From: Psammoneis japonica | Lineage: Eukaryota | Length of the DNA stretch: 64,000 nt | Reading direction: 5' to 3' | Assembly (NCBI GenBank): GCA_008632985.1 | Contig: QPGO01000005.1 | Location: 889,607-953,606, forward strand | Part shown: positions 1 through 33,036 of the stretch, piece by piece | Numbering within the stretch: the first letter of the stretch is position 1 | Layout: each line of letters starts with the position of its first letter | Position numbers and translations under genes: made by a program | Notes under the pieces: model-generated | The model's input: the letters and a program-made list of their open reading frames with translations, nothing else | What the model was told of the DNA's origin: nothing | Databases searched by the model: none

Positions 1-955
1 CCGGCCACCACCCAGCATAGTATCCCATAATGCCGCGCTCTCTTGCCAACCCGGTAATGGCCTTTGGAAGGTTCGGATAGTTTCCAGCCATAATGTTGTC
101 CGTGATCATCATTTGCGGTGTCGATACAATAGAGCAGCAAATAGTGGAAATGGCCGAACTGAGAAAGTCAAGTCCTGGGCCAATCTTGTCGGCTCGTTTG
201 GCAAGATTTGGATTGCGTTGCACAAGCTTGTCCATGCGGTCTCGTACCATTTCCAAAACAGCAAAATTGATTGCACCATGGGGAACACTCAACAAAAAAT
301 TAGCACCGGCCCCACGGGTAAGCATACCAAAGTTTTCAGGCTTGGCAAGATTCGAAATTGTCGATTCAGTGTTGGATTGTAGGATGGTCTTCATGGTGTT
401 GGCAGGATGCATGACAGTTTGAGCGACGCTCCGACTTACAGCACCCGCAACCATATTTTCCCAAAAGAACAAAGGACGAACGTCCAATACTGCACTCCCA
501 CCTCGTGATGTTGATACTGCTTTTGTCGAATCATCCTGTCTTGAACCATGCTGCTTACTCTCTGACAGTTGCCGCTGATGTTTGCTATTTGTAGCGAAAG
601 AGCACAGTTCCGCTTGCGTATAGTCATTGCCAGAACCTTCCGTTGATATTCTTCTTCTACCTGAGGCCGTCTCTGTTCGAGTTCCCGAGGTAGACCAGTC
701 TTCTCCAAAATACTCTCGTCTCGCGTCTATCGCAAATGTCGACGCATGAGCAGCTGGAGGCCTTGTGAAAGGGGATCTGTTCTGTCGGTGCGCTAGAGCT
801 GAACGGACCCCAACCCCAAAAGGTGCCGATACCTGCTTCCATAAGTCATGCCGTAATCCTGTTGACCCATGGATTACCAACAGGGTTGTCGATAGCCATA
901 GCAGAACCCACGATCGAACATACTGTCGTTGTGATGGTGAATTGGTACAGAACAT
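1..955 (-). CDS. Mitochondrial carrier family (SLC25) protein with long N-terminal extension; 3' end runs off the window
   Basis: Open minus frame from ATG at 955 to the window edge. It reads ...ENMVAGAVSRSVAQTVMHPANTMKT...STPQMMITD...GIMGYYAGWWP (degenerate Px[DE]xx[KR] carrier motifs). The N-terminus has a hydrophobic signal-like stretch (WVLLWLSTTLLVIHGS). Confidence 0.8.
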   Translation of the reverse strand, partial: MFCTNSPSQRQYVRSWVLLWLSTTLLVIHGSTGLRHDLWKQVSAPFGVGVRSALAHRQNRSPFTRPPAAHASTFAIDARREYFGEDWSTSGTRTETASGRRRISTEGSGNDYTQAELCSFATNSKHQRQLSESKQHGSRQDDSTKAVSTSRGGSAVLDVRPLFFWENMVAGAVSRSVAQTVMHPANTMKTILQSNTESTISNLAKPENFGMLTRGAGANFLLSVPHGAINFAVLEMVRDRMDKLVQRNPNLAKRADKIGPGLDFLSSAISTICCSIVSTPQMMITDNIMAGNYPNLPKAITGLARERGIMGYYAGWWP

Positions 956-3900
956 GCTGAAATATGAATCAATGAAAAAGCGGGACTCCTGTCTATCGCT
1001 GTAGTTCCTTTCCTAACTATAGCTGAACTCCGAAGGGACCCTTCTGAACGTCTCTCAAGCTGGTATGAGTGGTAGTTCGTGTGTTTGATGTGTTGCAGCA
1101 CAAGAAAATGTGCGCATCAAGAGCCAATGTCAAAAAAAGTGATGGCGAAGAGAGATCGCAAAAATCGACGAGCTTCGGTTTCTCTCGTGAAAAAGCGGCA
1201 ACGTGGAACCATCCTACGTCTCCTTCATACTGAAACCACGTAGAAATCACTACATAACCAGTTGGATCGTCAGGGTTCTCATGTGACACATTGTGACGTA
1301 CAGAGCAAATGATTGGCTCAATTGATTCACGAGCGTTAACATTTTAGTCTCACTCCACGATCATTGTGAGAACACGGTGAACCATGGTGAATGATGATGA
1401 TGGATGCAGGAAATGCATGGCGCCAACAAGAACTGATGGGAAGCAGAGCACTTTCATTGCCTTGGCTTGCTGTTCCACATTCCTTGGTTGCTTGTTTTCT
1501 CCTCTTCTGTGCCAAGAGCCTCGTCTCATGTTTGTTGAGACAGCCCCCTGGCTGAGTGGCTTGCAAATTTGCTGTGCGCCGTCTGACAGGAGCCAGGAAT
1601 TTCTCAAACAAACAAAAGGTCTTGTGGCTCAAAAAGAAGTGGCACAATTTGAAAATTAAAGTTTTTTTTTTGCCCAAGTGCTTGCCACTGAAGTTTTCTT
1701 TTTTTGTCTTTTTTTGTTCGCACATTTTGGGCATTGACCCCCAAGACAAAACAGCCGTGACCCTCGGTGATGGCCACAGCCCCTCAGTGGACCAGTCACA
1801 ACCTGTTTTGGGTCAGGGTCATTGAATCTCATTGCAAACGATGATGAGGTCACACGTGTGCACAAAAATTGCTTCCAAATCAATTGAAATGAAGCCAACA
1901 AAAAAAAACTGTGCAAGATTGTGCTGCTGAAGCTCCTCTTCCACCTGCTGGGCTGCACCCCAAGCTGCTGCTGCCACAACTCAGTCATCACAATGCAAAA
2001 TTCAATGTCCTTCTTTTTGGTCTTCTGGCACTGGCTGCAGCACAAGCCAATTTTTCCTTTTGCTCCAAAGTGCTTGTCTGTGCATGGAGGCACTCACAGC
2101 CGCATTGTGCTCCAACAATTTCAAAAAATTTCCAATGCCACTTGCCCATGTGCATCAACACCAGTGCAAAAAGAGTGGTGCAGAAGAACCTGCTGGTGCC
2201 ATGTTGACAATGGGATGAAATTGAGCTTGCACTCTGTGAGGAAAGCAGCACACCCACATGCAAAACATGCTCTGGCTCTTTTTTTGGCTTTTGAGAAGGC
2301 CAAAAAGCCAAAAAAAATTCTCCATCCACAACTTGTCTGTTGTTGGGGGTGCTGCTTTTGCTTGTGAGTGTTCACACCAGGCAACTGGCCAGCAGCCTGA
2401 CTTTGGAGCAACTTTGCTGTGGACAGTGGGCTCTCGCCAGCTGTGTGCTGCAAGGGAGGGGGGCTCTGCCACATCAAAGCATTCAATGTGTGCACTTGTC
2501 AAAAACAAATGAGCTGTGTTGCTGCACCAAGCACACCAGTTTTTGGAAGACTTTCATCACAAAGCTTGCCAAGACATTGATGCCTCTCCTCCTGTCAAAA
2601 GCACACACTGTTGTCCAACATCTGTCCAGCACCCAGCTCACCAAGTTGGCACATGGTGCACGAGCACTCATGGGCAGGTGTTGGGGTTGGCAGACACAGC
2701 CTTTCCAGGCAGCTGGCATCTGACACATGGCTCAGTTTGACACCACAACTCCTTGTCCTCTTGCAAAAAGGCAACTTCCAAAATGTTTTTCATCAAGAGA
2801 ACCCTCTCTTGCAAAAAAGCCAACATTTGACTCTCTTGGCTGGGGGGCGGCATCTGCCGCCACATTTGAAGTGGGGTGCACATGTGTTGGTTTGGCCCTT
2901 GCCTTCTCTTTGATGACACCAAAAGTAAAATGCTTGGTGCATTTCCTGAGCAACTCCCCAAAGGCAGGCATTGGCTCTCCAAAAAATGACATGCCAGCTG
3001 CCAGCAATTGCCACACAACACACTTCATTGCTGAGGAACAAAAGAGTGCACCAAAGTCAGACCTGAGGCAGTCAAGACATTCCAGCACCAAACATTGCTT
3101 GGGCTTCTCAAGTTCAACATCTTTGGCAGTGCCCCCTCAAACCACAAACTCTGTCTTGATCTCACCTTGAGCAGGGCGGGTGGAGTGTGTCTGGGTTTCC
3201 TTCTTCACCAAGGCCAGTCCACCAGGTGAAAACAGGCAGCCAGAGACAAAGCAGCAAGAAGGAGCATCAGCAGCAGTGCAAGCATTCCTCACCTCCCAGT
3301 GGCTTGCCTGCCAGAGGATTTGCTTGGCTGCTCATGAGCAAATGTGCTGTGTGGGCCGCTGATGCCCAAACAGTGATGACAGCACTGGCGCAGACACTCC
3401 ACATCTCATTGCTTGGCTTTGTTGATTGTGGTGCTCTTTCCAAACATTGCTCAAGGAACTAAAAGGCAAGAGTTGCGGCAAAAGCATGGGCTCATGCAAT
3501 GTGGACCACCAACAAGAACAAAAGCAAAGAGGATGATTGCACGACACAATCCTTGAGCTTGAATCCAGATGTTCCTCTCATGCTTTAAGAAGCTTCCTTG
3601 GCACTGCTAGGGCGCTCATGGTCAAGAGGCTTGAAGACCCTTGTTTTGAGAAAAAGGCCACAAAAAAAGAGCACAAAAGCTGCAGGAAAAGCAAGAGATG
3701 AAGACATGACTGCTCTCAAGCCAATGTCCAATCCTTTGGCTGCATCACACAAGAGACCCATTTGAACAGCAGTGGAAGCTCTTTGTTCAAAAGAGCACCC
3801 CCCTGCCCAAATTCAAGGACATCACACAGCACCTTCTCCACTGCTTTTGTCTGTCATCAGCTGTGTGCAACCCAAATGAGGATGGCAAATTCTTGTCAGA

Positions 3901-6749
3901 ACAACAACATTCAATTTGAGCTGGCTGGGGCCACAGAAAATGGATGGGTTGCTCTCCAACAACATTCTTTCTTGTCAGGCTTGCAGCCCTGTTTTTTGCA
4001 CATTTTTCTCCGTGTGAAAGGTTGTTGAAAGAAGCCAACAACAGAGGTTGCATTGCTGGCAGTGCAAGCAACAAAGAGAACAGCACTCAGAAGAAGAGAA
4101 AGCAGCTCACCAATGTGATTCCAACAGTGCAGCAGCAACCCTGGCAACTTGCTTGTGCTGCAGCAGAGGGGGCATGCCATGATGCATGGCAGCAGATGCG
4201 TTTAATCTGTGGTGCTTGCCAATCATTTCATTCCAAATTTGCCACTTGCCACATCAGCAAAGTTCTCTTTTTGGGGGGCAGCATGCTTGCCCAAACCTTT
4301 GTTGCAAGTGTTCAAAAATCAAGAAGAGACAAGCACAAAAACAGATCACAACAGCGCACAAAGTGAGCAAAGTGGCAGCATTTCAAAAGGGCTCTTTTGT
4401 CTGCACCACCCCAATGGCTGAAGTTTGGTGCAAGCTGCTGAGTGACAATGTTGTCACTGTTGCCATCAATGTTGGTGCAAAGGCTCCAAAGAAGGGAGAA
4501 AATCTCCTGAAGGATGTCATCAAAGACAGAGGCAAGGCAATCTCATCTTGGCTGTGCTGCCCCTCCAAACAGCTGGTGGCCTTGGCTGCATGTGGGCTTG
4601 CATGGCAGCACCTGCTTGCTCAGGGTGAACAAAATCTTTCCAACTGCCAGCGCAGCAATGGGCAACAAGATGCCTCCAATTGTGAAAGCTCCATGGGCCA
4701 GTTGCACAAAGAACAAGAGCTCACAGCCATGATTCATTTGGCTGGTGCACAGCAGGCAAGAAGAAGCTTCTGATTGTGAAAGCTCCTTGCTGGACCAACC
4801 ACAAAGAAGTCAACTTGCAGCAACACAGAAGGCAGCACAGATGTGGAGTTCACCCAACAGCAGATGCTGTGCACAACAATTGAATGCAGAGACTCTGGCA
4901 CCTTCAAAAGTGAAGCCTGGCATTTGTTGCAACATGACTCACTCTCATGAGCTGGGCCTCTGAGACCAGTTGTTGACACATGAAGTGGCCTGCCTGACCC
5001 ACCACTGCTCATGGATGGGTTCTCAAGTTTGCCAAAATCAGATGGGAAACACAAGGCATCAGGCAGCAGCATGGTGCAATTCTTGAAAAAGCATGGAACA
5101 AAGTTGACAGCAATGCCATCTGGCAGAAAATGTGCAGGCAAGCACCGAGGAGCTCAAGAAGGACACCACAAGATGATGAAACCACAAGTGCCAGTTCATT
5201 CTCATCTGGAAGATGTTGTGGCTCTTGTTCAGAATTCACACTCTCTTGTTCAGAATTGTGTGTTCTCAACAAGTCCTTGACAATTGCCAGCGAAGGGAGT
5301 TTGTGGCAATTGTTCCAACCTTTCAAGTGGGATTTAACAGCTGAGCGATGTGACTCCTCTCAGTCTCATTGCACACACATTCTTGACAATTTTTCACATC
5401 TGCTCAATTTTGACATTCATTTCCATGTCCATTGACCACACAATGTCCACTTTGTCAATTACACTGACCTTTCAAGTGGGGGATGACAGTCAACAAAACT
5501 TGTCACTTGCACTTGTTTCTGTCTCAACAACCATGTGTTCACAACAACTTTCTGACATCATTCATTTCTGACAACAATGATGTTCAATTGTCTTGTCAAC
5601 CTGATTTCACATTGGCTGTGTGCTGATGCTTGTCATCTGATTTGCAAATGTCCCATTTTGTCATTTCTGTGCTGCACACCAAACAGTGCGCCCTTTTTCC
5701 CACTCTTGTTTTTCTCCTGCATTCCACCAGCTCTTGTTGTCCTTCGCATTCCCTGCAAATGAGTGTGATGTTTTGGTCCTTGTGTCCTCCTCCTTTGCAA
5801 CCACTCTTGCTCTCTCTGGGATTGTCCACGCCAGGCAACGACATTGTTGTCAATGATCTGTCTTGCGTTCCTTCTGTTTGGCAGGCCAAAGTGTCACCCA
5901 CAACAAGAGAAAACTTTGTGCCAATGATCAGGTTTTGTGCATGTCTTGTGTTTCTTGTGATCTTGTCTCATGTGCTGCTTCTGCTCACCTTTGTGCCCTC
6001 CCCCATTGCCTGTCTTCCATTGCAGCTCAGGCATGTGTCTGGATGTCTGTGTGCAAAGATGTGCACAAGTGTCAGTCTTTTGCATTGGACGCCCATTCTC
6101 CATGCATTTGCCACTTGTTTTTCTCACCTTGTGTCCTGCATTTTATTCCGCCCCATTTGCAATGCCGTTGCCCATCCCCACTGCTCTCATTGTCAGACAT
6201 TGGATGCAACTTGAGTTTGCATTTTTTCTTGTGTCTTGTGAGGGAGCAACAATTTGTGTTTTTGGCCAAAATGCAAGCCTGGCCATCAATTGATTCCCAT
6301 TGGCATCTCTTTTTCAGCAACAACATTTTTTTTTAAATCAATGATTTTGTTGCAACACAATGGTTTGAATGATCTGAAAAAACCTCAACGAATCATTCAG
6401 TCATTGAAGTCACACATGCATTCAACCAGCTTGATTTTGTCACACTGATGTGTTCTTGTTGAGATTGAAATTTTCACACTTGTGCTGCACACTCCCAGCT
6501 CTGGGACTTCAGTCAACACCTTTTTGCCATTTGATGTGTTCAAAAATTGCCGCTGCCAACAAGACAATTGGCTCTCTCCAGAAAGCTCAGAAACAGACCC
6601 TTCATGCCAGTGAAATGACAATTTTGGAGACCAACCTTGCAAGGAAAGTGGGCAACTTGAAGGTGGGTTGTGCCCTTCTGTTCTCTCTCAGTTTTCTTTC
6701 CAAACAAGAGACAGGGAACACCATGAATTTCCATTCACTGACTCCCTGC

Positions 6750-7920
6750 CCTGGTTGTTGCTGGCACCCCTGGGACACAATGGAGGCACCCAAGGCTGTT
6801 CAAAGACAACTGGGCACTTGTGCTGTCACACGGCACAGAAAGCTCCCTTGTCTCTGCAAGGTGAGGTGGCTGGGCCAAAGTGAGCCAATCACATCATGTG
6901 CAGAAAGGGGGTGCATTGGCCCAAGACCAGGCTTTGCCTTCCCAGCCATTGTTGTTCTTGCCTCCTCAGGGACCCAATGAAGTCTCTTGTGCCCATCCCA
7001 AGACAACTGAGTGCTCTTGTGCTGTCACACAGATGGCTCCCTTGTCTTTCTTGCAAATTGGTTCTTGGCTGGGCCAAACCCAGTCACGTCAGAGAGACAA
7101 GGTGCTGCACTGACACAAGATGAGGCCTGTGCTTCCCAACCATTGTTGTTGTTGTGTCCTCTGGGATCCAACGGAGTGGCTCAAAGCCATTCCAAGACAA
7201 CTGAACACTTGCACTGTCACACAGATGGTTTTCTTGTCTCTGTGGTGGTGGGGGCGGCTGGGCCAAACCCAGCAGTCATGTCAGAGAGACAAGGTCCTGC
7301 ACTGACACAAGACAAGGCCTTTTCTTCCCAAGCGTTGTTGTTGTTGGCTCCTGACAACCAAGCACTTGTGCTGTTGCACAGATGGTTTTCTTGTCTCTGT
7401 GGGTGGGGGGTGGCTCTGGGCCAAACCCAGTCATGTCAGAGAGACAAAGCATTGACACAAGACAAGGCCTTTGCTTCCCAACCATTGTTGTTGTTGCATC
7501 CTCTGGGACCCAATGGAGTCATCTGACACCATCCCAAGACAACGGAGCACTTGCGCTGTTGCACAGATGGTTTTCTTGTCCTTGCAGGAGGTGGGGTGGC
7601 TGGGCCAAAGAACCCAGTCATGTCAGAGAGACAGGGTTCTGTGTTGACACAAGACAAGGCCTTTGCTTCTCAGCCATTGTTGTCATTGCATGTTCCTCTG
7701 GGACCCAATGGAGTCATCCAATGCCATCCCAAGACACAGAGCACTTGCGCTGTTGCACCAATGTTTCCCTTGTCTCTGCAGGCTGGCTGGCTGGGCCAAA
7801 GCCAGTCATGTCAGAGAGACAAGGTGCCGCATTGACACAAGACATGGCATTTGCTCCCCAACCAAAGTTGTTGGCATGTCCCTGGCAGCCCACTGGAGTC
7901 CTCCAATGCTGCCCCAATGC
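6750..7920. repeat. Diverged tandem repeat, ~6 copies of a ~185 bp unit
   Basis: The anchor GGGCCAAA recurs at ~6872, 7071, 7260, 7418, 7602 and 7793, mostly followed by CAGTCATGTCAGAGAGACAAGG...TGACACAAGACAAGGCC. Confidence 0.9.
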
Positions 7921-8653
7921 ATCTGCGCTCCTCCTTTGTCACATCTGTGGGCCCCATGCTTCTGCACGTTGTGCGCAGCTGGGCATCTTCTTGTTTGTGG
8001 AGGAATCATGCAAGGGGCTGCTGCTGCCCAAGACAAGGCTTGCAGCTTCCCAAATCAAGAGTGCAAAGATGCCACAATTGGGCCAACTCACTCAACAAAT
8101 GCAGACTGAGTGCATTTGGGGTGCGTGTCATGCGGGCAGCAACTCAAACCAATGTGCCTTTGTCATGGTGATGATGATGATCTGGCTTGGCATTTTGCAA
8201 ATGTTTGCTGGGACATGGGGGCACCACCACATGCTCCATTTTAGTGTCTCAAATGACGTTGGCCTGTGCACCAAGCACCATCCACCCGGCAAGCCTGTTG
8301 CTCCAATTGGAGACACCAAGACATGTCATCAAACTCAACACCAGAATGAACCCCTGGGAACTGTGGATGTGAACTCTGGCCATTGTCTTCATTTGCGATG
8401 ATGGCAACAAAATGAAACAATCTTCCCAGTCTCTGTCATCTGGCAGTGGCTTTCCAAGCAGTGGCGCCATTGCTTGCTTCATGAGATGCAAAGACCATGC
8501 CTTGGCAAGTTTAAATCTAGGCTGCTCTTCCTGCTGTTCCCAGTGCTTTTCTTGCTGCAGCACTGGGGGTGTGCTTCCCAAAGTCATCGCAAGGGTTCAG
8601 GCCAAAATGGAGAAAGAAAAACACTGGAGATGTCATTGAAAATGTCTTTGGAG

Positions 8654-8655
<2 letters not shown>

Positions 8656-8685
<30 letters not shown>

Positions 8686-8692
8686 CATTGTT
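8656..8692 (+). repeat. (GTT)n microsatellite
   Basis: Run ttgttgttgttgttgttgttgttgttgtc seen directly. Confidence 0.9.
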
Positions 8693-8867
8693 GCACATCC
8701 AACCAGGACAACAAAGTGGATTGTGACAGGGGCGCACCATTGTTGTTGGTGGATGTTAGATCAGAGGGGATGAGTTGTGCGGTGTCCAGCAGGAAAAAAG
8801 GACAGATGCAGCAGAGACAGAGGAAAGCAAAGGCAGAGAGCTGGCAAAATGGAAGGAAAAGGAAACT

Positions 8868-10385
8868 GATGAAGCTGTTCTTGAGAGGTTTGAAATGAGG
8901 ACAAAATGAGCCACACAGGTGACTAAAACAAAGGCAGAGATCTGACAAATGGAGGGGAAAAATGAAGCTGTTCTTAACAAGAGTTTAAAATGAGGACAAA
9001 ATGAGCCACACAGGTGACTTCACACGATGCTTTTTGGCCACAGCTGCACAGCCATTGCTGTGATTTTTGACAAAAATGCTCACAACCCATGAAGTCAATT
9101 CTTTTTCTTTCCAAAACGCAGACACGCAATGCAACTCAAGTCAACCATGGGATCAGTTGCAGCGGCAGCAATGTTTGACACCAAGTGCAAGAAACATTTG
9201 GAGAGTGTGTTGAAACATCATTGCAATCACAAGGTGTGTGTCCCAAAGAAAGGCATCATCTTCACTCAATTCCTTTTGTCATCGTCTGAACTTTTCACTC
9301 AATTCATTTGTTTCTTCTGCATCGGACAATGCAGCGAATGTTTTGAAGGTCCAAAGTGGAGTGCACCCTGCAGCCACCCATGACTTGGATGTTGCATTCA
9401 AAAAAGATGACAGAGAAAGGCACGCACTCTTTCTTTGGTTTTGTTTTCTGTGTCAAAAACAAAAGCAAGCGTTGGCAAGAATCCTTGCTTGTCATGATCA
9501 TCTGTGACAATCAAATTGACTCAATGTCTGCATCAATTTGTCCATGAGTTTCAATCAATGACTCAAACACCACCCTCCATGACCCACGGAGACTGTCCTG
9601 GGGGCAGCTGTCAGGTGTCAAAAATTTGTGCAAGTTCCTGAGGAGCCACGCCAAGCAGTTGGACATTGGATCCTGTGAGCATGCCAGCTCCAACCAAATC
9701 AATTTGGAGCACAGCTTAAATTGTTCACATTGTCTGCAAAGAGGAATTTTCAAGTGGTCAATGCTTCTAAGATTGGGGCCAAACTGCAGAAAATGCTGCC
9801 AGCAACAATCAAGTGACAACAGCTGACGGGAACCCTTCGTGTCGGACACCCATTTTTGTCATTTTGCATGCACAGAACAATGTGCAGTTTGTCAATGATG
9901 TGGATTGAACACTGCACAATGGTCCAGGAAGCATCTGCTGCATGAAAGGGCATTGAATGTGAGCAACAGCAAGAATCAACAAGCACAGTCAGTGCCATTT
10001 AACCATGAAAGGTGGGTTTGAACCAGGGCTTGGTGAGTGCGCAGGCAGTTCTCTCTGCCGGGCTCCAAGCACTGGAAATCATTGCTGCAATGATGAGAAT
10101 GGCTTTGTCAAAGAGCAATGCCATGAAGTGCTGTGTCTCAAGAGTCTTGTCAACTGACACATCATGTGAAGCTTGCTCGAGTGCCTTTCAGAAACATGTC
10201 GCCAAGCTCACTTCCCTTGGCCACGACAGATTGAACCAGCAAACTGCAGCACACAGAGAAATCACTCATGTGAGCCACACAGGCAACTTGAACAAAGACA
10301 GAGATCTGACAAATGCAAGGAAAAAAAACAAATGAAGCTGTTCTCAACAAGTGCCCACAATGTGGACAGAATGAGCCACACAACA
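8868..10385 (+). repeat. Dispersed ~90-100 bp repeat: two tandem copies at 8868-9019 and related copies at ~10270-10385
   Basis: ATGAAGCTGTTCT...GGACA(A/G)AATGAGCCACACA and CAGAGATCTGACAAATG occur at both locations. Confidence 0.8.
9129..10260 (+). pseudogene. Decayed hAT-superfamily (DUF659-like) transposase remnant
   Basis: Fragments across frames, in the expected order: VCVPKKGIIF, SDNAANV (TDNAAN-like), VKNLCKFLRSH, RVLSTDTSCEACSSAF and HDRL (resembling the hAT C-terminal dimerisation motif R.LS...SS.CER.WS.F...RNRL). Confidence 0.5.
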
Positions 10386-11018
10386 TGTGGCTTGGAATGA
10401 GCAAAACAGACTCATTTGTTTGTGACTTGATGACTGCTGAGAAACAAAAATGACAATTGTGTGTGTTGAAAATCTGTGGATGCAATCAGCGCACATGTGA
10501 AAATTTCAATCATTGACAAGTTGCACTCTTGTCAAGCACAGAAACATGTTGCAGACACTCTGACGACATCTTTTGCTGCTGCTGTGCTTCAGCTGCTGGG
10601 TTCCAACAAAAGTTTGCACACTGCAACAATGGAATTTTGGCTGGCTTGGTCTGCAATGTGTGGTGGTTTGTGCAAATGCATCATCTGCAAAGGGGCAAAG
10701 CAAAGTTTTCATTTGAGCACACGCTTGGCACTCCTGACAACTCTGGCGCCGAAGAACTCCACCCACACACTTTGTTGCACCTGGCTTGCTCACAGCATGT
10801 GGCACACATTTCTCAGAAGTGACTTCTTGTTGCAACAAACAAGAAGAGAGAAGAAGTCAGCTGAGTGACAGCTGCAACAACAGCACTTTGTGCTGTTGGA
10901 CACATGAGACATTTGGGGCAAGGAGCATCTGCGCATTCCTGCCTGCACACAGGAGTCACCCAGGGAAGCAAGAAGGATGAAAGCAAAAGGGGGGAGTGAC
11001 ACATCAACAGCATTTGGC

Positions 11019-11041
11019 GGGGGGGGGGGGGGGGGGGGGGG
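11019..11041 (+). repeat. Poly-G tract (23 nt)
   Basis: Seen directly. Confidence 0.9.
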
Positions 11042-11456
11042 ATTGTGGCGTGATCTTGTGAACTGGCTTGAAGAGCTTTTAGATTTTTGTGCAGCTGATG
11101 AAAGGAAAAAATGTGGGCAACTGTGAGGAGCTCAGATTCCATGCTGAGCATGTTGCTCCAAAGATGGGTCCCTCATGTTCCCAAGCAGACGAGTCACCAC
11201 AATTTGGAGGAAAGTGTGCTGCAGTTTGTTGGAAGCAAGCTTCTCTTTTGACAATTTGATGTGGATGCACTGACAGGATTGTACAGCACTGCGTCGAGAC
11301 GGGAACGATGATGAGCAGCAGCGCCACATCGCCACATCCCCCACATCGCACATTCATTCAAACGGCATTCGACACGATTTGACGATGGACAGACCAAGAC
11401 GGTCGCGACTAAATAAAAGATCTTATTCTCTACGAGTATGGCAAGAAGAGACGGCA

Positions 11457-13216
11457 ATGATGAGGAGCCGTTTGTTTTGGACATGGGTGGCTGCATTGTT
11501 GGTGATATCAACATCATTGATTGCTCTTTTATTGTGTCCCCATTCAAAGGTGGAAGAAAGTTTCAACTTACAAGCAACACATGACTTGTACTACCACGGC
11601 GTCATGCCAGCTCTGCACTCGGCAGTTCGTGGCGGCAGCAACGATAGCTTGCCCATCACGCTACCTTATGATCATTTACAATACCCTGGAGGTACTTTAA
11701 AAAAGTCTTTTGCCAAAGGATTTCCTTTCTATGGTCGACTAATCGAGAAAAAAAAACTCACACATGCGTTCTGCGCCCCCCCCCCCAATTTTTTGTTTTC
11801 CGCTTGAAAGTGGTTCCTCGTACCTTTGCCGCTCCACTGCTCTTGTCGTGCGCAGCTCGAATAATAAGTCTGTTACTGAGACCAATTTTTAGCTTATCAG
11901 ACCATCCCATGTCGGTTCAGTTTCTTTGCCGATTCTTGTTGCTTGCATGCCAATGGCATGCATGGTTCCGTTTAGCAAAAGCCGCACAACAAAAGTTTGG
12001 AAGGACGAATTGCGTGGGTATTTACTTTGCACTGATTACAGCTTGTCAGTTTCATTTGCCGTACTATGGGAGTCGAATGTTGCCCAATGTCTTTGCTCTG
12101 GTCTTGGTGACACATGCGCACGCTGAATGGTTGCTTGGCAGTACCAAACGAGCGACGGCTCTGCTCACGGCTGCGACTGTCATTTTTCGATGCGATGTTC
12201 TCCTACTCTTGGGATCCATGGGACTTTTCTGGCTCATATCAAAGCAGATTACCGTGGTACAAGCCATAACAGTGGGGTTCTTGTCAGTCTTCATGTCGCT
12301 GCTAGTCACTGCTCCTATTGACAGCATCCTGTGGCAACGTGTCGTGTGGCCAGAGGGAGAAGTATTTTATTTCAACACCATCTTGGGCAAGTCGAGTGAT
12401 TGGGGGACATCACCATGGCATTGGTATATCACCAGTGCTCTTCCCAAGTCAATGATGGCTACGATTTTCTTGGTGCCACTCTCCTTTCTGCGTATTCCAG
12501 AGTACATTGCGTCGTGGTGCGACAAACAAGCAACAAGGGCGGCGGTTCCAATTCTCGATACACCCATGCTTGGATTTTTGATTCCCATTGCCGGCTTTAT
12601 TGGGCTGTACTCGTTTTTGGGTCACAAGGAAATGCGTTTCATTTTTCCAGCGCTACCCATGCTTAATGTAGCTGCTGCGGTGGGAATGGGACGACTACAC
12701 GGGTTGACAAACAGAGCACCCAACAAAGACAAGGCCGAGCTTTCTTTCAAACTACTCGTGTCGTGGATCCTTTACACCGGTGGCCTTTTGACGATGCTCT
12801 TGACTTTTGTAGCAAGTACTGTCTTTCTTGCCGTTTCGCGGCACAATTATCCTGGCGGACAAGCCCTACAAATCCTATCAAATCACGTTGCGGAACATCG
12901 GCAGAACGACGAGGTACGACTTTACATTGACGTCGCTTCGGCCATGTCGGGTGTGTCGCTCTTTGGGCAAGCAGCTGCATCACTCAGTACGACAGAAAAA
13001 ATAAAGTGGCATTTTGAAAAGGCCGGCTATGAACAAGAGAATACTGGAGTTGGAGACTATTCTCGGTTTACACACATGTTGTCTGAAGAGCAAGACGTGC
13101 CTGGTTTCCATTCAATCGCTATTGCGCAAGGATACCCTCGCTTTGATTTTCGACACGCAAGAATAGTTACAAGTGATGCAATCTTTGTCCTAGAGCGTAA
13201 TGGGTGGGGGAACTGA
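11457..13216 (+). CDS. ALG12: Dol-P-Man:Man7GlcNAc2-PP-Dol alpha-1,6-mannosyltransferase (exons 11457-11691, 11811-13216)
   Basis: Motifs KVEESFNLQATHD, spliced YPGVVPRTF, SRMLPN, IFRCD, WPEGEVFYFNT, HKEMRFIFP and NYPGG. The GT-AG intron 11692-11810 restores the frame. Confidence 0.93.
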
Positions 13217-13261
13217 GCTCGGACCTTGCTGATGCCGACGTAAAGATAAGGTTTTATTACT

Positions 13262-15117: not shown

Positions 15118-15239
15118 GCTTTTCTGGTGACAAGTAGTAGTTGTACGGTATTGTTGATGATGTGTGGTGTTGATGTATGATGTATTATGCAAGATGCAAG
15201 GGATGCAATGTGGATGCAAAAACATGAGAGGATAAAGAC

Positions 15240-16945
15240 AGACGCATTGACAAACTTCAGGCTGGCCGCCCGGCAGGCAAGCAGACAACAAATGTGAGCT
15301 CAGCGGCCTTTTCTTCGCACAAAAGAGACGAGATGCACTGCCACAAGGAGTCTCGTTGTGTTGCAAGGCCACCAGCAATCGACCCATGCAAGGCACAAGG
15401 CAGTTGGAACTTGTCATCTTTGTCGCTGTCGATTTCTGACAACAAGCAGCTGCCAGAGACCCCAAATGCTCCCGCAGCTGGTGCCCTTCTTTTCCTCCTT
15501 GCCCCACTCCTGTGCAGAAGCTGCGGGGAACAAAGAAAGTGAGTTTGAGTTTGTGCTGTCATCCTTTTCAAGCCAACCGACACAACTGGGCACAACAGGC
15601 AGAGACAACAGTGCACACTCTGCACAAAATTGATGCTCTGCTCTGTGTGCCTCTTTTTCCGTGGTCCATCGCCAGTGCACTCATCACCCCAACAACTTTG
15701 CTGCAGAGCTTGTGCTCAGAATTGCGTGGGCACCACATCACATGGCATCCAGCAGGAGTTTGAGCTTCAGCTGCACTGCTCCTTTTCTGCTGGCTTGTCC
15801 GACCTCCACAATGCTGTTGTGTGGAGAGCATCTTCCTTTCTGGCTGGTGCGTGTGTTGCTGCTGCAGCTTGGCACTCATTGATGGCACTGGGGGGAGCAA
15901 AAATGCACTGAGCACATGGAAAGTCAACTGGGATGTTGTCCTGTCTCTGCAACAAGCAGTTTGATGCATGGCCAGCTGTCTTTCAGCTTGGGGCAACTGA
16001 CAGCACACATGGCCACTCAAACTTGACAAAGAGGGAGAAGGAAAAAGAGAAACTTGCACATTTTGCTCAAGAAATGAGCAACACAATGCAGCAGAACAGG
16101 CAAGGTGTTCAGACATGGAAACACAGCTGCAGCACCTGGTCATGTGAAAATGTTGACTCATCACAATGAGTCTGCTGGGCCCGCTGCAATCCAGCCAGTT
16201 TCTTCCTGTCCCAACAAGAAGAGCATGGCACCAAGGGGCACAGGCACATTTGCAAATGCTGCCCCAAAGTGACAGTGGATGGCATGTGCAGGTCATGTGC
16301 CCAGAGGAACACAACAAACACGCGTCACACAACAAAAAGACTGTGTGTGCCATGCATGCTGCAGCACACCTCAAACATGCTCCTTCAAGTTCTGCTCCTG
16401 CATTGCCAACAAATTGGAGAAGCTCATTCCTCTTTTGGTCAAAAAGTTCAACAGCCTTTGAGAGCTGCTGCTTCCTGAGCCATTTTAGAGAGACAGTCAT
16501 GGCCAAGACCAACAGACCCATCACGCCAATTGTGCTTTCCCAGTTTTGTTCAATTTCAAATTTGATGGGGTTTTGTTGTTTGACTCACAGGTTTGTTGGG
16601 GCCTGCACACCAGCTGAGTGTGTTGGGTGCACTCATTGAAGAATCAACAGCTGGCAAAGTTCGTGAAGTGGAGAGATGTTTTCTGCTTGCTTCTTTCAGG
16701 GAAGGATGGGAGTGAGGGTTTGGGCTTGAGTTTTGTGACATGTGTTCTCTTTCTAGAGATTCTGTGGACAAGTCCCTGGAAAACAGGTGATTGCTCGTGC
16801 ATGTCACATTGGGGTGAGGGCAACACAGAAGTGGAAACACCTGCGGCACTTCAAAACACAGAGCAGAACAAAGCATGCTGGAAACGGAAGAGCTTCAGGG
16901 CGGCATCAGTGAAAAGGCCGACAATGTGGATGGTGTTGAATCGCT
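15240..16945. mobile_element. Degenerate repeat domain 2 (CpG- and TpA-depleted), element type not identified
   Basis: The only TpA seen inside are TTAG (~16486) and CTAG (~16754). No recognisable intact ORF. Confidence 0.6.
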
Positions 16946-17332
16946 GATATCTCTTGCTGGTGCTGCAAAGGATTGCCATCGAGCAAAACTGCACTTTCAT
17001 CAGAAGAAACTGAAAAAATTGAAATCAAAGAAGGGTGGCAACTTCCGGGTGCGGCAGACGTTGAGCGGAAACGAAAAGTCGACACTCGGAACGGCGAACG
17101 ATCATTCGAGCAATCGCAAAACGAAGGTACGCTTTGCAACCGGATGAAGAAAAAGCGCGGAAAGTTATCGTTAGGATTGGCGTAGTATAGATTTGTGGTT
17201 CAGGATTATCTTGTCTAGAGAAGTTACATTTTGCCACTAACTTTTATCTTTTGCAGTCCCTGTCATCCAAACTTAACTTACTAAAATGAACGTACAGCTG
17301 AAAAGAGCCATTGCGGATGCATTATTTCCCTG

Positions 17333-18400
17333 TTAACTCAGAAGCGACGGCATTGCTGGAAGCGGAATATGACTAGTCTTCGTCTTGATAACTTCGTCAA
17401 TCAACCCGTAGTCCATGGCCTCGTAAGGCGTCATAAAGAAGTCCTGCAAGCCAAGAAAAGATAGCATAATGCATGAGCATCAAACGCCTACCTTACAACA
17501 AAGCAAAGGATCACGACCATCACCAGATTCGTGCTTACCCTGTCGGTATCTTCCGCAATCTTTTCAATAGGTTGATCACAGTAGTCAGCCATGAATTTGT
17601 TGAGGCACGCCTTGGTAAAGAGAATCTCCTTTGCCTGAATTTCAATATCTGCAGCTTGTCCCTGTGCTCCGCCGAGAGGTTGATGGATCATGATTCTGGC
17701 ATTGGGCAAGGACCTGCGCTTTCCGGGTGTACCAGCTCCGAGCAGAAACGCTCCCATACTGGCTGCCATTCCAAAGCAAACAGTCTGAACATCGCAAGGG
17801 ATGAATTGCATTGTATCGTAAATAGCCAATCCAGCACTGACAGAGCCACCGGGAGAGTTAATGTAAAGAGTGATTTCCTTGTCAGGGTCCTCATTGGCAA
17901 GATACAAGAGCTGGGCAACGAGCACATTGGCAACCTCATCGTTCACATCCGTTCCAAGAAGAAGGATGCGGTCCTTGAGCAAACGAGAAATGACATCAAG
18001 TTGCTTTCCCTCAGCACCCTCTACGGTTGGTAGCGGTGGAGGAGTGCGAGGTTTTGGTGGTGGTTTTTGTGGTTCTTCGGGAGTGGGCTACAAAGACAAC
18101 AACACGCAAACGAGTCGGCGTCAGGCTTTCATGCAAAAGTACCCCAAGTCGCCTAATAACAAACCAGTATAAAGCACTCACCTCCTCAGGCATCATGAAA
18201 GCCCCGTTCATTGACACACCTGTCTTACTCGAAAGAGCCGGTCGACCAATCGTGGAGAAGGCACCTGATACGCAATCGCCACGGCAGAAAATGTGAGAGC
18301 GCGAGAAAGATACAGTTTTTGATCTAAGCGCTGCTTGATCTTTCGACTTACCGACTGTGGATACCAACCCAAAGACGAAAAGGATTGCTTGTCTCATCAT
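17333..18400 (-). CDS. clpP: Plastid-targeted ATP-dependent Clp protease proteolytic subunit (exons 18400-18352, 18264-18182, 18087-17539, 17443-17333)
   Basis: [19 protein letters not shown], catalytic AASMG and MIHQP, spliced [11 protein letters not shown]. Signal peptide followed by G-AF (ASAF-like plastid motif). Three GT-AG introns. Confidence 0.93.
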
Positions 18401-18911: not shown

Positions 18912-18970
18912 AAACATTGCCCTACTGGCTGTGCATGCCAAAAACTGAAACAGAGTGGGCCGCATACCGG

Positions 18971-19830: not shown

Positions 19831-21199
19831 AGGGAATTTTGCCGTGAGTTTCTTTGCACTCGTTCACACACACCGTATTAATGTTACTTTCTCTCTGAAA
19901 GATACAATACGCTTGTGACAAGCTAACTCACCATGTTTATCGACATCGTGTAGAAGTACAATCCTCCCCTTCGATCTTGGATTGTGAGTGTTGTCGTGGG
20001 CGTGAAAGCAGCCGAATTATATGGAGTTGAGACGCCGTGTCGCATCGTTTCACAGAAACTCACCGAGAAACTTCCTAAGATCTTCCTGTCGTATCAATGC
20101 GCCAGATGCGGTCGAGTCAAGCACGGAAAGATGTCGTGTAGCAGTTATCGCGATGGTCTACCCCATTTTCGGAAACACGTGCCGAAATAATGCAGGGCGT
20201 TCAATCCATCAATCCCGATACCAGATCTCTTGCCCGATTTCAGGATTTCCCTGTGTACCCGTTTGGTGCCTCTACGGATGTCCCATATGAATTGGTCGTC
20301 GCCTTTACCGATGATCCTGCGATCATGTCTTCTGCCATATGTATCAGAATTGGAAGCGACCGGTGGAGAAGACACACGGGAAAGTCAGCCGGAGACAATT
20401 TGGCAGCCTCTCAAAGGACCTAACAAGGTTTCTTTCGGTATACTCCTAGAAGCTACATCTTGTTGTATGTGGACGGACTCTCCGTTTAATCCTCCCGAAG
20501 ACGAATTGTCCTATCCAACGTTTGCACATACGACCGAGGAACTCTTGGTGGCACTAACTGAATTGAAGGGCACCAGTGACTGGCCATTGTTATTCTTTGT
20601 TTTTTCGAAGAATAGAGCATGTTCTCGGGGACTTGTCGAGAACTTTCTCTTCCTGTCGGCACTGTCGGGCAGTTCAAATGTAGGGCTGACTATGACGCTT
20701 CTCATAGCGAAGGTGTTGCGTGCCCCTTGGCTACAAAGGGTGCCGTCAATGTTGGTGAAACAACTACGGACACTCTTTTAATGACTCTTTAGCCAATATT
20801 GCCACTAAGATTGTTCCTGGTCAGGGTGTCTCTCAGAGCATTGCAGAATCGATTCAAGAAGTCGACAATCTCAAGGAAGATGTGGGTTGCTAGTAGGTGC
20901 ATCGGGGGCGTCCGTTTGTATCTGCCACAACATGTTTCATTTTTTTATTAGCCATCACATGTGTGACCTACATTGCTTACAATAGAGATATTTGGAGGTA
21001 GGCGTCCTCACTTTGAGCGGGAGTAGCACAAGACAAAAGACCCGACCTGCACTGTTCAAAATGGTGTGGCAGCTGCGGCTGTTACCTGTTGTTCCATGAT
21101 CCAGCAACTGCTGGCAATGGTTGGGCAAGAGTGTGACAACGCAGAAGATTGCTTTATCCCCCCCCCCCCCCTGCAAATCTCCAAAGTCTTCTGCTGGTG

Positions 21200-21920
21200 T
21201 CTTGTGGCAATTGGCAACCCATCATCCATGGCGTGACCTCATGGGTGCCACACTCACATCCATTTGGAGGCCAATTCAGGGCCCAGCCCTGCCCAGCCCC
21301 ACCACTGCATGTCTTGTGAGTTTCTGATGAAAGACAGTGCCCTCTGCAAAATGTTGTCAACAAAAAGTTTTGCAGGATGTGCTGAAGTGCAGTGACAAAC
21401 TGGACAACATGCCTCCCCTCCAAGATCTCCTCTTGTCTTCTCTCCAGGCTTGGTTCTTCCAAAGTCAGATTGCACATTTGAAAAGGTGGATTGCCACTTG
21501 CAGACACTTTTCGACACTTGGAATGAAGCTGGGTGGCACCAGGTGCTTGACAGCTGACTCTCCTGCTTGTAAAACACAACTCAGCTGGATCATTTGCACA
21601 CAGACTTGGGCTTTCTCTTGGGTGGCCCCAGTCAGAGAACAAAATGCCCCCTGGCCAGTTGGCACAAGTTGGGTCTTTCACGTGGTCACAATGTGGATGC
21701 CAGAGAGTTGGCTCAATGCTGTCTCTTGCAGAGGCAGAGCTGACAGCTGTCTGAAACAAATGGCAAGAAGAAAGCATCATCCAGCCAAAGTTTGTGTGGG
21801 GCTGCTGGAGTTGGTTGAAGAACATTGGATGCATGGACTCTCAAGAACAACAAAGATGCAAAGAGTTGGATTGCAGTGGCTCAACCAACACTGGAGAACA
21901 GCCTCAACAAAGAAGGAAAG
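21200..21920 (+). pseudogene. 3' fragment of a non-LTR (LINE-like) retrotransposon ORF2
   Basis: Fragments LLSSLQAWF, WNEAGWHQVLDS*L (Q..IGW..L.GR-like), WIICTQTWAFSW and terminal WTLKNNKDAKSWIAVAQP resemble LINE C-terminal regions as recalled. No RT core is present. Confidence 0.4.
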
Positions 21921-22049
21921 TTTTTCAGGGTTTTGCTGCTCCTCCCCCATGCCATTGGTGCTGCTGACCATTTTTGTTGGGCACCATCTCTGGGTGGCAG
22001 CCCTCCCAGCCAATCATTTTCCCTTCTGCCATGCTGGATGGTGCAACAG

Positions 22050-23450
22050 AAGTGTGGGTTGGCACAGCATCAGAGAAGCTCTGGCCATTGCCTGCCATGA
22101 TCCAGCAACCATCAATGACATGGAATTGGCATGACAGCACCCAAGCAAAGCAAGATGACTCATCTTGCCCCTCTGCAAATCTCTAAAGTCTCATGGAAAT
22201 TTGCAAGCCATCCTCCAATGTGTGGCACATCATTGGCAAGCTGTGTTCATGTCTGTTTGGAAGCCAACTCAGATGCATTGTTCCTGGGCTCTGCTGTCTC
22301 ACTGGTTGCCCAAGTTTTTGGGTTGACAACAACATGTTTTTTCTTTCTGCTGGCTGGCTCTCATGTGCAGAAGAGAGCTGTCAAGCACATCATCTGCTGT
22401 TTGAGGCCACAGCTCTGGTGCCAGCCTTGCATGCCCACAAAAGCAGCAAACAGACAATGGGATGGAACAACAAGGAGCAGCCAGGAGGGGGGGAAAGCAG
22501 GTGTTTTTGGTGAACATCAAAAACCTGTGTGTCAAATCTCTCAGATCTTGTTTTGCAAGATCCAGTGCTTGTCTTGCCCACAATGAGGTGTCCCCACAAC
22601 CCACAGAACAACCCTTGTGCTCTCTCAAGGAGGTTGCAAAGAATGCAAATTCTTTGATTGTCAAGCACAACTTGTTGTGGACAATTTGCAAGAAACAGCC
22701 CATTTCTCAGATTGTTTGCTTTTTCAGGTCTGAGTCCAAACTTTTGCAGGAGCCCACACCCTTTTTGTTTTGCCCCACCAAATCTTTTGGGTCACAATGA
22801 TGCCTTCTCACGGCTCTCACAGTCTTCTGCCTCGTTTGTGAAGATGTGCTTGTTGTGCAAGATCTGGCACTTGGCCTTTTCTTTCCTGGCCAGCTCTTGT
22901 CCCTTTGCAGTGCTTGACTGCCTTGTTTGTGCTGGTTCTCTCTCCTCTGCAGCAGCTCATCAGCAGACTCTTGCACAGCAGCCACACCTCTCAAAACAGA
23001 TCAGAGGTGATGCAGTTGTCAGCGGAGGCAGTTGCCAGTGGAAGCAGTTGCCAGCAGAAACAGTTGCCTGGCATCTGGCGCCAGTCTCTGCTGCTTGTGT
23101 CTGACCAATTTGACAAAACCTGCAACATTTGCTCTCCTCCAAAGCTTCTGCTTTCTGCCTGTGGTGTGCCAACAGAGACAATGCACACAGCCAGGGGACA
23201 GTGCACATTGATTTGAGGGGCTCAATGCTGCAACGCTCATCACATTGGAGCATGGTCCACCCTTTGTCAACCACAGCACAGCTGACCTTGATTGAGCTCT
23301 TTGCATTTTTCCCAGCTGAGCAGTGCAGACCTCTGTGCTGCTCCATTTTACCCCGTGCGACGACCCCTTTGCAAAATTGTTTTTGCTGCTCTTCACTTGC
23401 AATTGGCTGCCCATCATTTTGGCTGCAGACTCCAGTTTTTACAGTGCACA
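22050..23450 (-). pseudogene. Possible decayed MULE/MuDR transposase 5' part
   Basis: ASEEQQKQFCK...IKVSCAVVDKGWTMLQ (MuDR-like DNA-binding pattern) followed by VIDGCWIM (first-Asp-like motif). Heavily degraded. Confidence 0.25.
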
Positions 23451-23993
23451 CCATGAAATTTCTGTGACAATTTGGATTCAACACAGGCACCCATGGGAAA
23501 AGTGAAGAACAGTGCATGCTCCGACAGAGTTTTGCCAAACGGAGAGCTCCTCTGGCTGCTGTGTGTCACAGCCCTTCATGTTGCTGTCACCAGGCAATGG
23601 GTGACAGACAGCATTGTTCTTTTTCAAACTTTGACCAAACATTTGCAGATGAGTGTGAACTGCCAATGGCAAGCATCAGGAGCTGCACTTTGCCTGGATC
23701 TTCATGATCCGCAGCAAATGGCATTGGCCTGGAACTCATGATGGCGTGCTTCGACGGAATCTTGCCGATCGGCGATCGGAGTTCTTTGCACGGTCGGATT
23801 CTGGATCTTTTCACTTTGCACTGTGTGGTTCAGTGTTCAGTGCTCAGTAGTGCGAACCCTCTCGTCGTGTCATGATGTTTTGTTGAGACAGTGACAGTTC
23901 CTCTTCTTGTTCGCTTGTTAGCACAAGAAAAGACTGTATCATGTTACATTGACATGCCGCATTTGCCTCAATCCTGAAGTTCTGACACTTTCT

Positions 23994-32395: not shown

Positions 32396-33036
32396 TAGGG
32401 GCGTCGTAGTCGGGGGGCAGATTGTGCAGACGACGAGGAGACAAGACATGTGCGAGTACGGGGGGTCAATCCAATGATTTCTATTTTTCTTTTTGTGGCG
32501 CTTCTTGTGTGGGAAAAGGCGGCACTGGTAGATGAAAACGCTGTAGCCTAGTGTTGTAATTTGTAGAGGCCTCTCTATCATGACAAGGTGGAGCAATGAT
32601 ATATCGAACCTTAAAGGCAGCGTCAATCGCGGAATGGTCTTGGAACTCTTGCGACGGTGTAGTTTCTCTTGTTCTCTGGCGTCCAAGTCGGTGAATACAA
32701 TCCGTAAGCTTCCTGTATGTCGGATGCGAGTAGCCGGTCTCGCTTGCGATTGCAAGGTGCTGCCCAGTCAGAATACCCTAACCCTTTCCACATTTTACAA
32801 CATGCTTTGCTCCATTGCCAGACCGGTGTGGCTTCTTGATCATCCCAATCCTTGTATTCATGTCACTGTCTTCTTCTTTGTCCTTCTTTGTCTTCTTTGT
32901 TGTTGTCCTGTGTTGTTCTTTTTCCGTTTTCTCTTCCTCATTGTCCTTGTCATTGCCAGAAAGCTCTGTTGTTGCTTGTGTTCTCATCTCTGATTCTGCC
33001 GGTTTTTTCTTCATTTTTGCTCCCTTGCCCTTTTAA

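Follow-up and report, generated by a model that had tools for sequence, protein, structure and literature searches.

In ascomycetes, repeat-induced point mutation (RIP) acts on duplicated sequence and converts CpA to TpA, with a gain of TpA, a loss of CpA and TpG, and a lower GC content. Deamination of 5-methylcytosine (5mC) erodes CpG in the methylated transposons of vertebrates, plants, and many fungi. Editing enzymes act on other substrates: APOBEC3 changes C to U on cDNA, and ADAR, which to our knowledge is known only from animals, changes A to I on double-stranded RNA with a preference for a 5′ U. In diatoms, transposable elements are CpG-methylated, and DNA methylation has been reported as restricted to these elements. 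Here, a stretch of 64,000 nucleotides from the diatom Psammoneis japonica (assembly GCA_008632985.1, contig QPGO01000005.1, positions 889,607 to 953,606, forward strand; henceforth called the window) was analysed, in which four sharply bounded islands nearly lack the dinucleotide TpA (TA) and are at the same time poor in CpG (CG).

The closest described case is given in the main text of a preprint by Mettrop et al. 2026 (bioRxiv 10.64898/2026.01.13.699255), in which hypermutation of integrated viral DNA from TpA to TpG or CpA was followed in mutation-accumulation lines of Bigelowiella natans. As stated there, of 302 single-nucleotide mutations that arose de novo, 231 fell within two integrated viral regions; 230 of these 231 were A to G or T to C changes, all at TpA, with a rate roughly 1000-fold that of the background. 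In addition, 124 clusters poor in TpA and rich in CpA and TpG were mapped, mostly unannotated, and an ADAT2-like DNA deaminase was proposed by the authors, together with genome defence by DNA editing. A preliminary description of the present window, made from the sequence alone, had put forward the same conversion and was not aware of any account of it; TpA to TpG/CpA hypermutation had, however, been measured in B. natans. Literature searches yielded no account of TpA-depleted islands in diatoms, the B. natans preprint being the sole match.

Islands were recognised in sliding dinucleotide counts, and a boundary search placed their ends at the outermost TAs of the background (Table 1); for island 1, the bounding background TAs are located at 1345 and 11282. 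Summed up, the four islands comprise 22,348 bp (35% of the window) and contain 59 TA (observed/expected ratio (O/E) 0.04), 219 CG (0.17), 2555 CA (1.82), and 2454 TG (1.78), whereas the remaining 41,651 bp contain 1623 TA (O/E 0.59), 2423 CG (0.99), 3129 CA (1.17), and 2947 TG (1.17). Across single islands, O/E ranged from 0.02 to 0.05 for TA and from 0.15 to 0.27 for CG, and the TA frequency was 0.26% in islands versus 3.9% in the background. When non-overlapping 500-bp tiles were counted, all 40 tiles inside the islands held 0–6 TA and 0–9 CG, and all 80 tiles outside held 11–33 TA and 16–41 CG. The counts agree with the preliminary description, which had reported sharply bounded domains that are TpA-poor, CpG-poor, and TG/CA-rich within surroundings of abundant TA and CG; its domain coordinates were off by at most 41 bp from the computed borders, and its estimate by eye of 20–25 TA in the first domain compares with 21 counted and about 390 expected at the background rate of the window. 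GC content was unchanged across the islands (48%; range 0.42–0.55, same as in the flanks). The dinucleotide GC was raised (1.25) and the dinucleotide AT lowered (0.81), both of which are expected by-products of changes from TAC to TGC, GTA to GCA, and ATA to ACA. ApA was not depleted (O/E 1.29), i.e., among WA steps (W = A or T) the loss was restricted to TA, and a general WA to WG bias of the polymerase-eta type, which the preliminary description had named as a candidate mechanism beside a TadA/ADAT-like deaminase, therefore fits poorly.

At each of the eight island edges, the border of TA loss and that of CG loss lie no more than about 0.25 kb apart. At four of these edges (15234–15480, 16790–16947, 23700–23847, and 40540–40730), stretches of about 150–250 bp are TA-free despite an already normal CpG density; here, the TA process may reach beyond CpG decay, or CpG-dense promoter stretches may be naturally TA-poor. 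A comparable TA-free CpG cluster is located at 11292–11406, just beyond island 1.

The lost dinucleotides were recovered as TG and CA. Between islands and the rest of the window, the change per bp was −0.036 for TA, −0.048 for CG, and +0.078 for TG plus CA, and a mass balance by flank class yielded 1890 TA and CG lost versus 1749 TG and CA gained (r = 0.80, 10 classes). Of the 1890 sites lost, about 1080 (roughly 57%) are explained by CpG decay, which explains none of the TpA loss. The gain in TG and CA is too large for CG loss alone to supply it. Product asymmetries by orientation were also observed (gain of 202 for CTGC versus 42 for GTGG); they are given as an observation only, as their baseline is coding DNA.

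Variation between repeat copies in island 1 is located at the same steps. In a repeat of about 100 bp with three copies, two alignment columns read TG in the copy at 8815–8924, TA in the copy at 8915–9025, and CA in the copy at 10262–10395. When six units of a tandem array were aligned, TG and CA shared 13 of 181 column pairs, which is the commonest two-base difference (next commonest, 6), and CG was also retained in 2 of these 13 column pairs. Furthermore, TG in the window corresponds to TA in other repeat copies at 9212 (TTAA) and 10125 (ATAA).

For comparison with further sequence, contigs assembled independently from a separate DNA run (X1) were aligned to positions 1–20000 of the window (30 bins, word depth about 55). 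In X1 contig records 1 and 2, which together cover 3,514 island bp and whose differences are all included, 10 of 15 events that differ from the window were located at TA/CG-type steps: five adjacent TG to CA doublets, four changes between CG and TG/CA, and one TA to TG change (at 3609). A sixth TG/CA doublet was found on a short third X1 contig. The doublets are located at 1536/7, 1549/50, 1890/1, 2420/1, 3432/3, and 3926/7, while only about 0.03 doublets are expected from independent point mutation at this divergence; a TG-versus-CA doublet can be read as a TA or CG that was changed on one strand in one lineage and on the opposite strand in another, or as a new TA or CG that was re-converted on the other strand. 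In total, window and X1 differ by 21 letters in the 3,514 island bp and by 3 in the flank, of which about 4.1 kb were compared; these figures represent divergence and not mutation rate, and the flanks are under selection. Since both copies and alleles differ at TA/CG steps, the process acted in place and was still at work once the copies and alleles had separated. Judged from these differences, conversion appears to be recent or ongoing.

The same alignments bear on the possibility, named as a refuting case in the preliminary description, that TG/CA in place of TA/CG results from faulty basecalling or polishing where bases are modified. In the flanks, X1 departs from the window by many small gaps (record 7, 9 gaps; record 8, 14 gaps), as is seen in long-read assemblies. 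However, X1 de novo contigs give the same sequence: they match the single-copy island at 99.5% (6 of 1,629 and 16 of 3,232 letters differ), are equally poor in TA and CG, and cover all 30 bins. Moreover, about 1,900 miscalls of one class would be needed, and context rules that look biochemical govern which sites survive. Such an artefact is thus regarded as the least probable of the explanations considered here and as highly improbable in itself. At 15079–20000, X1 differs from the window in the flanking genes by many small gaps and few substitutions, a pattern suggestive of indels in the assembly that are either errors or heterozygous. Near the right edge, inside island 1, an unbroken run of 23 G is located at 11019–11041, and X1 reads seem cut at 11010–11050.

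A native composition would require no mutation by the host: the inserts would have arrived free of TA and CG (e.g., as a word-avoiding virus or element), or selection would remove these steps. This would suit the copies of 4670–10672, which are often 95–99% alike and hence multiplied already depleted, and homology searches of three island open reading frames (ORFs), viral contigs included, returned no less-mutated relative. Yet four unrelated sequences carry the same signature in the same sharp contrast to the intervening host DNA, copies and alleles differ exactly at TA/CG steps (including retained CG and TA), and neither a coding role nor any other function is visible that could be exposed to selection. 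A native composition is hence judged very unlikely.

Both strands were affected alike. The ratio of TG to CA was 0.96 across the islands, with each island balanced, and a runs test along the islands detected no strand-coordinated runs of TG or CA (z from −1.5 to +0.8), by which strand-coordinated bursts were ruled out. The strand balance and the random order of TG and CA exclude that a single RNA or DNA strand was edited in long tracts. Editing from A to I in the transcript of a retroelement (ADAR/ADAT type), which would change the transcribed strand only (TA to TG without TA to CA), was likewise rejected, as both strands are equal and no long terminal repeats (LTRs) or reverse transcriptase domains are present.

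The TAs that survive in the islands follow a flank rule, with 54 of 59 being TTAN or NTAA. TTAA occurs 22 times in islands and 59 times in the rest of the window (per-bp ratio 0.69), followed by TTAG/CTAA (16 and 121; 0.25), TTAC/GTAA (9 and 191; 0.09), and TTAT/ATAA (7 and 228; 0.06), whereas all VTAB classes together (V = A, C, or G; B = C, G, or T) occur 5 times in islands and 1020 times in the rest (0.009). ATAC/GTAT, GTAC, CTAC/GTAG, and ATAT are represented by 0 sites in islands versus 765 in the rest. A single protective flank, i.e., a 5′ T or a 3′ A, confers about tenfold protection of TA. The sensitive word is accordingly VTAB, with TTAA nearly exempt, which points to a tetranucleotide specificity. 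Recognition of the duplex is suggested by the protection of both strands by one flank, as a single-strand rule would leave the other strand fully exposed. Survival of CpG, by contrast, rises with GC flanks (from 0.07 for TCGA up to 0.43 for GCGC), and this dissimilarity of the two flank rules favours two processes over one.

One process would suffice if a dual deaminase acted on both A and C at pyrimidine-purine steps, namely the C of CG and the A of TA, so that CpG would be lost without methylation. The coincidence of TA-loss and CG-loss borders at the eight edges is what such an enzyme would produce, and ADAT2 of amphioxus and Trypanosoma deaminates A and/or C in DNA, as cited in Mettrop et al. 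2026. Against it, the depths of depletion are unequal (0.04 versus 0.17), the flank rules differ (TTAA spared versus GC-rich flanks spared), and the 230 of 231 island mutations reported for B. natans are A to G or T to C, with no C to T (Mettrop et al. 2026). The four edges that are TA-free at normal CG also speak against one enzyme, if weakly, CpG-dense promoter DNA being TA-poor anyway. A dual deaminase is therefore considered improbable.

Strand symmetry also admits a different chemistry, as T to C on one strand is inseparable by sequence from A to G on the other. A dioxygenase of the TET/JBP type would oxidise the T of TpA to 5-hydroxymethyluracil (5hmU) or 5-formyluracil, which would mispair with G and lead to T to C changes, seen as TA to CA on one strand and as TA to TG on the other; one enzyme family could then mark both CpG and TpA, 5mC and T both being 5-methylpyrimidines before a purine. 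5-Formyluracil is mutagenic, and 5hmU of dinoflagellates prefers TpA; 5hmU itself, on the other hand, pairs with A. For diatoms, we know of no thymine modification of the TET/JBP type, and the window contains nothing of relevance to one. The co-extensive depletion of TA and CG would be in line with thymine oxidation, and TET/JBP homologues of dinoflagellates are reported to make 5hmU, which is enriched on repeats, with transposons being activated upon inhibition (PMC11572971). In B. natans, adenine deamination is preferred by the authors (Mettrop et al. 2026). Overall, oxidation of thymine is deemed unlikely, albeit less so than a dual deaminase.

The explanation considered probable is that the islands are silenced, probably methylated DNA of non-host-like character, in which deamination of 5mC is combined with a targeted conversion of TpA to TpG or CpA, most simply by deamination of adenine. 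Silent, gene-free inserts between housekeeping genes would thereby have undergone two transition processes that are near completion on both strands. In the first, CpG would be changed to TpG or CpA, most simply by 5mC deamination in methylated DNA; the CpG loss with a matching gain in TpG and CpA, the CG/TG/CA columns in the tandem array, and the four allelic sites with CG opposite TG or CA are as 5mC decay predicts. In the second, TpA would be changed to TpG or CpA by an A:T to G:C transition at TA like that seen in B. natans: adenine in DNA would be deaminated to hypoxanthine and read as G, by a putative deaminase recruited through the state of chromatin or of methylation in the island. The insert would end up permanently scrambled, which may serve in defence, and the loss of TAA and TAG stops, with long spurious ORFs, would be a side effect. 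As for the second process postulated in the preliminary description, its presence beside CpG decay is supported by the mass balance, the paralogue columns, the X1 differences, and the strand symmetry, and its confinement to sharply bounded silent DNA held as well; the attribute "repeat-targeted" did not, given that about 6 of 22 kb are multi-copy and 0 of 265 ORFs are of transposon or viral type.

Several points weigh against this explanation. The background from which expected values were taken is mostly coding DNA, and X1, whose platform is off record, may derive from the same sample as the window. All six doublets are TG in the window and CA in X1 (two-sided p about 0.03), whereas a random choice of strand would mix the two; one lineage may have undergone a strand-coordinated event, or the assemblers may be biased in picking alleles. 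TG/CA doublets fit a TA and a CG ancestor equally, and the direct evidence for a TA ancestor is thin, consisting of two repeat columns, the allelic site at 3609, and two paralogue sites. As the repeat copies are often 95–99% alike, much of the family multiplied when already poor in TA and CG, and the depletion in part predates the copies. The tie between CpG loss and 5mC is one that we infer, and its coupling to TpA loss is without precedent, the main text of the B. natans preprint reporting no CpG effect. Finally, a foreign or mobile nature is indicated only by the multi-copy 6 kb and by the position between compact genes.

A wider proposal, offered tentatively and held to be possible without being the likelier case, is that diatoms, and perhaps the SAR group (Stramenopila, Alveolata, and Rhizaria) as a whole, given the TA arm seen in Rhizaria, possess a chromatin- or methylation-guided editor of duplex DNA at VTAB, which together with 5mC would erase TA and CG from invading DNA as a "reverse RIP," by which inserts would become permanently unreadable and yet not AT-rich. 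TG/CA doublets would then represent a steady state, in which a TA or CG newly formed in an island is immediately converted again, on one strand or the other.

With respect to coding content, all 265 stop-to-stop ORFs of at least 60 aa in the islands were considered (74 of at least 110 aa and 191 of 60–109 aa). A Pfam scan yielded 0 of 265 at the curated cut-off, with no protein signature of transposons or viruses; the best sub-threshold scores (E 0.004–0.09) were scattered across unrelated families and taken as noise. For the ORF at 7355–8398, 0 of 778 candidates were retained at an E-value of at most 0.001, and for the ORF at 15571–16584 (minus strand, 338 aa, island 2), whose codon-position composition is flat, 0 matches were found among 1.84 billion representatives. 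Codon-position composition was coding-like in one ORF only, P0121 (33040–33678, minus strand, island 4), for which 0 of 110 homology candidates and no relative in viral contigs were obtained; a comparison of P0121 with the Atlas gave a best score of 0.89 at low recognition and was uninformative. A period-3 signal was absent from all 62 island windows, the median outside being four times higher, and scans with Rfam and for tRNAs yielded 0 matches each. In a second, transcriptome-like run (X2, with GT..AG joints in flanking genes), island bins were uncovered except for a value of 12.6 in 9339–10005; this run was not used as evidence.

The long island ORFs exist because TAA and TAG stops have been removed: in six frames, the islands contain 1034 TGA, 76 TAA, and 25 TAG, compared with 875 TGA, 360 TAA, and 378 TAG in a 23-kb control. 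ORFs of at least 330 aa number 2 in the islands versus 0.08 expected (first-order Markov), and both were taken as spurious, as one lies within the tandem array and the other has a flat codon composition and no homologue. The scarcity of Tyr and the abundance of Cys, His, and Gln noticed at first reading were confirmed: the 8 longest island ORFs (1,986 aa) contain 0.1% Tyr, 7.2% Cys, 4.6% His, 6.8% Gln, and 2.9% Trp, and 7 ORFs of flanking genes (3,347 aa) contain 2.7%, 1.6%, 2.7%, 4.2%, and 1.4%, respectively. This composition, including the surplus of Trp, results from direct translation of the bias from TA and CG to TG and CA. The island ORFs are hence spurious and are not genes.

Repeat content was estimated from X1 as well. 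Of the 1288 X1 contigs aligned, 623 are 90–95% alike and 363 are 95–99% alike. Multi-copy DNA at an identity of at least 90% amounts to about 6 of 22 kb, older duplicates of less than 90% identity being beyond this measure. Positions 1335–4669 and island 2 (the latter with bins of 62–70 versus about 55 in the flanks) have single-copy depth and are as depleted as the multi-copy part. No LTRs, terminal inverted repeats, or similarity between islands were found beyond the tandem array, the three-copy repeat of about 100 bp, and one 25-nt inverted pair; this pair was rejected as an element end, as it does not match the depth borders. The designation of all four domains as repeat domains in the preliminary description thus applies to about 4670–10672, which is multi-copy in X1, and not to the set of islands, which share no similarity with each other. 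Old mobile or foreign inserts are the probable origin of the islands, with a repeat family making up part of one.

The islands are interspersed among ordinary, intron-poor housekeeping genes; island ends lie a few hundred bases or less from a gene, and several abut a CpG-dense stretch. The nearest named relatives of RtcB are those of diatoms (Amphora coffeaeformis 68%, Entomoneis paludosa 68%, Cyclotella atomus 65%, and also Thalassiosira), and relatives on further contigs reach 77–78% identity, by which the window is assigned to the nuclear DNA of a diatom. A scan of metagenomes with RtcB for related diatom loci returned 7 loci, all of bacterial type at 37–44% identity. The sole N of the window is located at 29448, at the start of the gene with MutS domain V; that a mismatch-repair gene adjoins a hypermutated island is probably coincidence. 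The fusion of an AlkB-type oxygenase with a methyltransferase is the sole nucleic-acid-modifying oxygenase encoded in the window, and nothing ties it to the islands. Further genes encode a cyclophilin-RRM protein, a DUF4336 protein, TauE, the A49 subunit of RNA polymerase I, and ABC transporters. An 828-aa frame without a Pfam family at 50386–52872 (minus strand; local GC 56–59%), with 60-bp tandem repeats at 51074–51270 (3 copies, 82% alike), is probably a gene for a repetitive protein. Between ClpP and the next gene, a 43-nt direct repeat is present three times at 18756–18911 (two copies identical), in DNA of normal composition.

Table 1 Positions of the islands, repeats, and neighbouring genes in the window (O/E values in brackets or, for CA and TG, given directly)
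Feature	Position	Strand	Characteristics
Mitochondrial carrier	2..1012	-	PF00153, E 3.8e-16; left of island 1; normal TA and CG
Island 1	1346..11281		9.9 kb; TA 21 (O/E 0.03), CG 88 (0.16), CA 1.81, TG 1.81
Single-copy stretch compared with one 3,232-nt X1 contig	2013..5242		16 letters in 12 events: 3 TG to CA doublets, 4 changes between CG and TG/CA, TA to TG at 3609
Multi-copy part of island 1	4670..10672		Summed X1 contig depth 364–2917 versus 50–66 in neighbouring bins
Tandem array	6743..8045	+	About 7 diverged units of about 190 bp; Tandem Repeats Finder periods 192 and 185; at the depth peak of the repeat
Short repeat, two adjacent copies of about 100 bp	8815..9025	+	Aligned with 10262–10395
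Short repeat, third copy	10262..10395	+	Aligned with 8815–8924 and 8915–9025
Alg9-like mannosyltransferase	11672..13216	+	PF03901, E 2.6e-40; right of island 1
Island 2	15234..16947		1.7 kb; TA 2 (O/E 0.02), CG 29 (0.27)
ClpP	17488..18087	-	PF00574, E 1e-67; right of island 2
Island 3	21025..23847		2.8 kb; TA 6 (O/E 0.03), CG 26 (0.15)
RtcB RNA ligase	23922..25454	+	PF01139, E 1.6e-105; right of island 3
MutS domain V protein	29443-32477	+	Split over consecutive frames; PF00488 on two ORFs (30876..32477); left of island 4
Island 4	32856..40730		7.9 kb; TA 30 (O/E 0.05), CG 76 (0.18)
AlkB-type 2-oxoglutarate-Fe(II) oxygenase and methyltransferase fusion	53247-55970	+	PF13532; 907 aa; resembles the tRNA-modifying ALKBH8 type

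The core TpA phenomenon is already contained in the B. natans preprint; new here are the diatom lineage, the near-saturation, the context rule, and the CpG loss over the same stretches. Should an enzyme be behind the TA arm, this would represent a second, far more saturated natural A:T to G:C change of chromosomal duplex DNA at a defined word; as it would then be found in another major lineage of algae, such a system may be widespread among marine protists. Testable handles are provided by the tetranucleotide rule (VTAB hit, TTAA spared), the coincidence with CpG decay, and the TG/CA doublet polymorphisms. A natural editor of adenine (or thymine) in duplex DNA would matter to the biology of genome defence and to base-editing technology. 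Islands of this kind are invisible to homology-based repeat annotation, and their long false ORFs, free of Tyr and rich in Cys, His, and Gln, can contaminate diatom gene sets.

Among the known systems, APOBEC3 and ADAR share with the proposed process the principle of editing as defence, and the 5′ U preference of ADAR matches the TA step. Their substrates are single strands or RNA, however, and their changes are strand-asymmetric or clustered, whereas TG and CA are balanced here and form no strand runs; moreover, the substrate is duplex genomic DNA, because alleles at a fixed chromosomal locus differ. CpG decay by 5mC deamination resembles the islands in the CpG O/E of 0.17 with a gain in TpG and CpA, in values of about 1.0 in nearby genes, and in the CG/TG/CA variation among copies, but it leaves the TpA loss unexplained and covers only the roughly 1080 CG-derived sites. 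Fungal RIP is alike in that bounded non-genic or repeated DNA is permanently mutated on both strands by context-specific transitions, leaving compositional islands beside normal genes. It runs, though, in the opposite direction, TpA being lost here (O/E 0.04) and CpA and TpG gained (1.8) with GC kept at 48%, and the single-copy stretch at 1335–4669 and island 2 are equally depleted, duplicates of less than 90% identity being beyond measure.

The hypermutation of B. natans is the most similar system, with differences in host, extent, and target. B. natans belongs to the Rhizaria (chlorarachniophytes) and the present host, as a diatom, to the Stramenopila. The TA content of the nucleocytoplasmic large DNA virus (NCLDV) region is given there as 3.3% versus 6.0%, whereas 0.26% versus 3.9% were found here, which is near saturation. 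CpG loss is co-extensive in the window, while the term "CpG" occurs 0 times in the main text of the preprint. The affected regions are viral inserts there, and the islands here contain no recognisable viral or transposon proteins. A flank rule by which TTAA is spared and VTAB is hit was not found in that main text, the supplements of which may bear on it. De novo mutations were measured in B. natans, and the process is known here from sequence variation alone. Both systems have in common a conversion of TpA to TpG or CpA on both strands, its confinement to bounded regions of non-host-like DNA that are mostly unannotatable, and, as described in the main text of the preprint, a footprint that is poor in TpA and rich in CpA and TpG.

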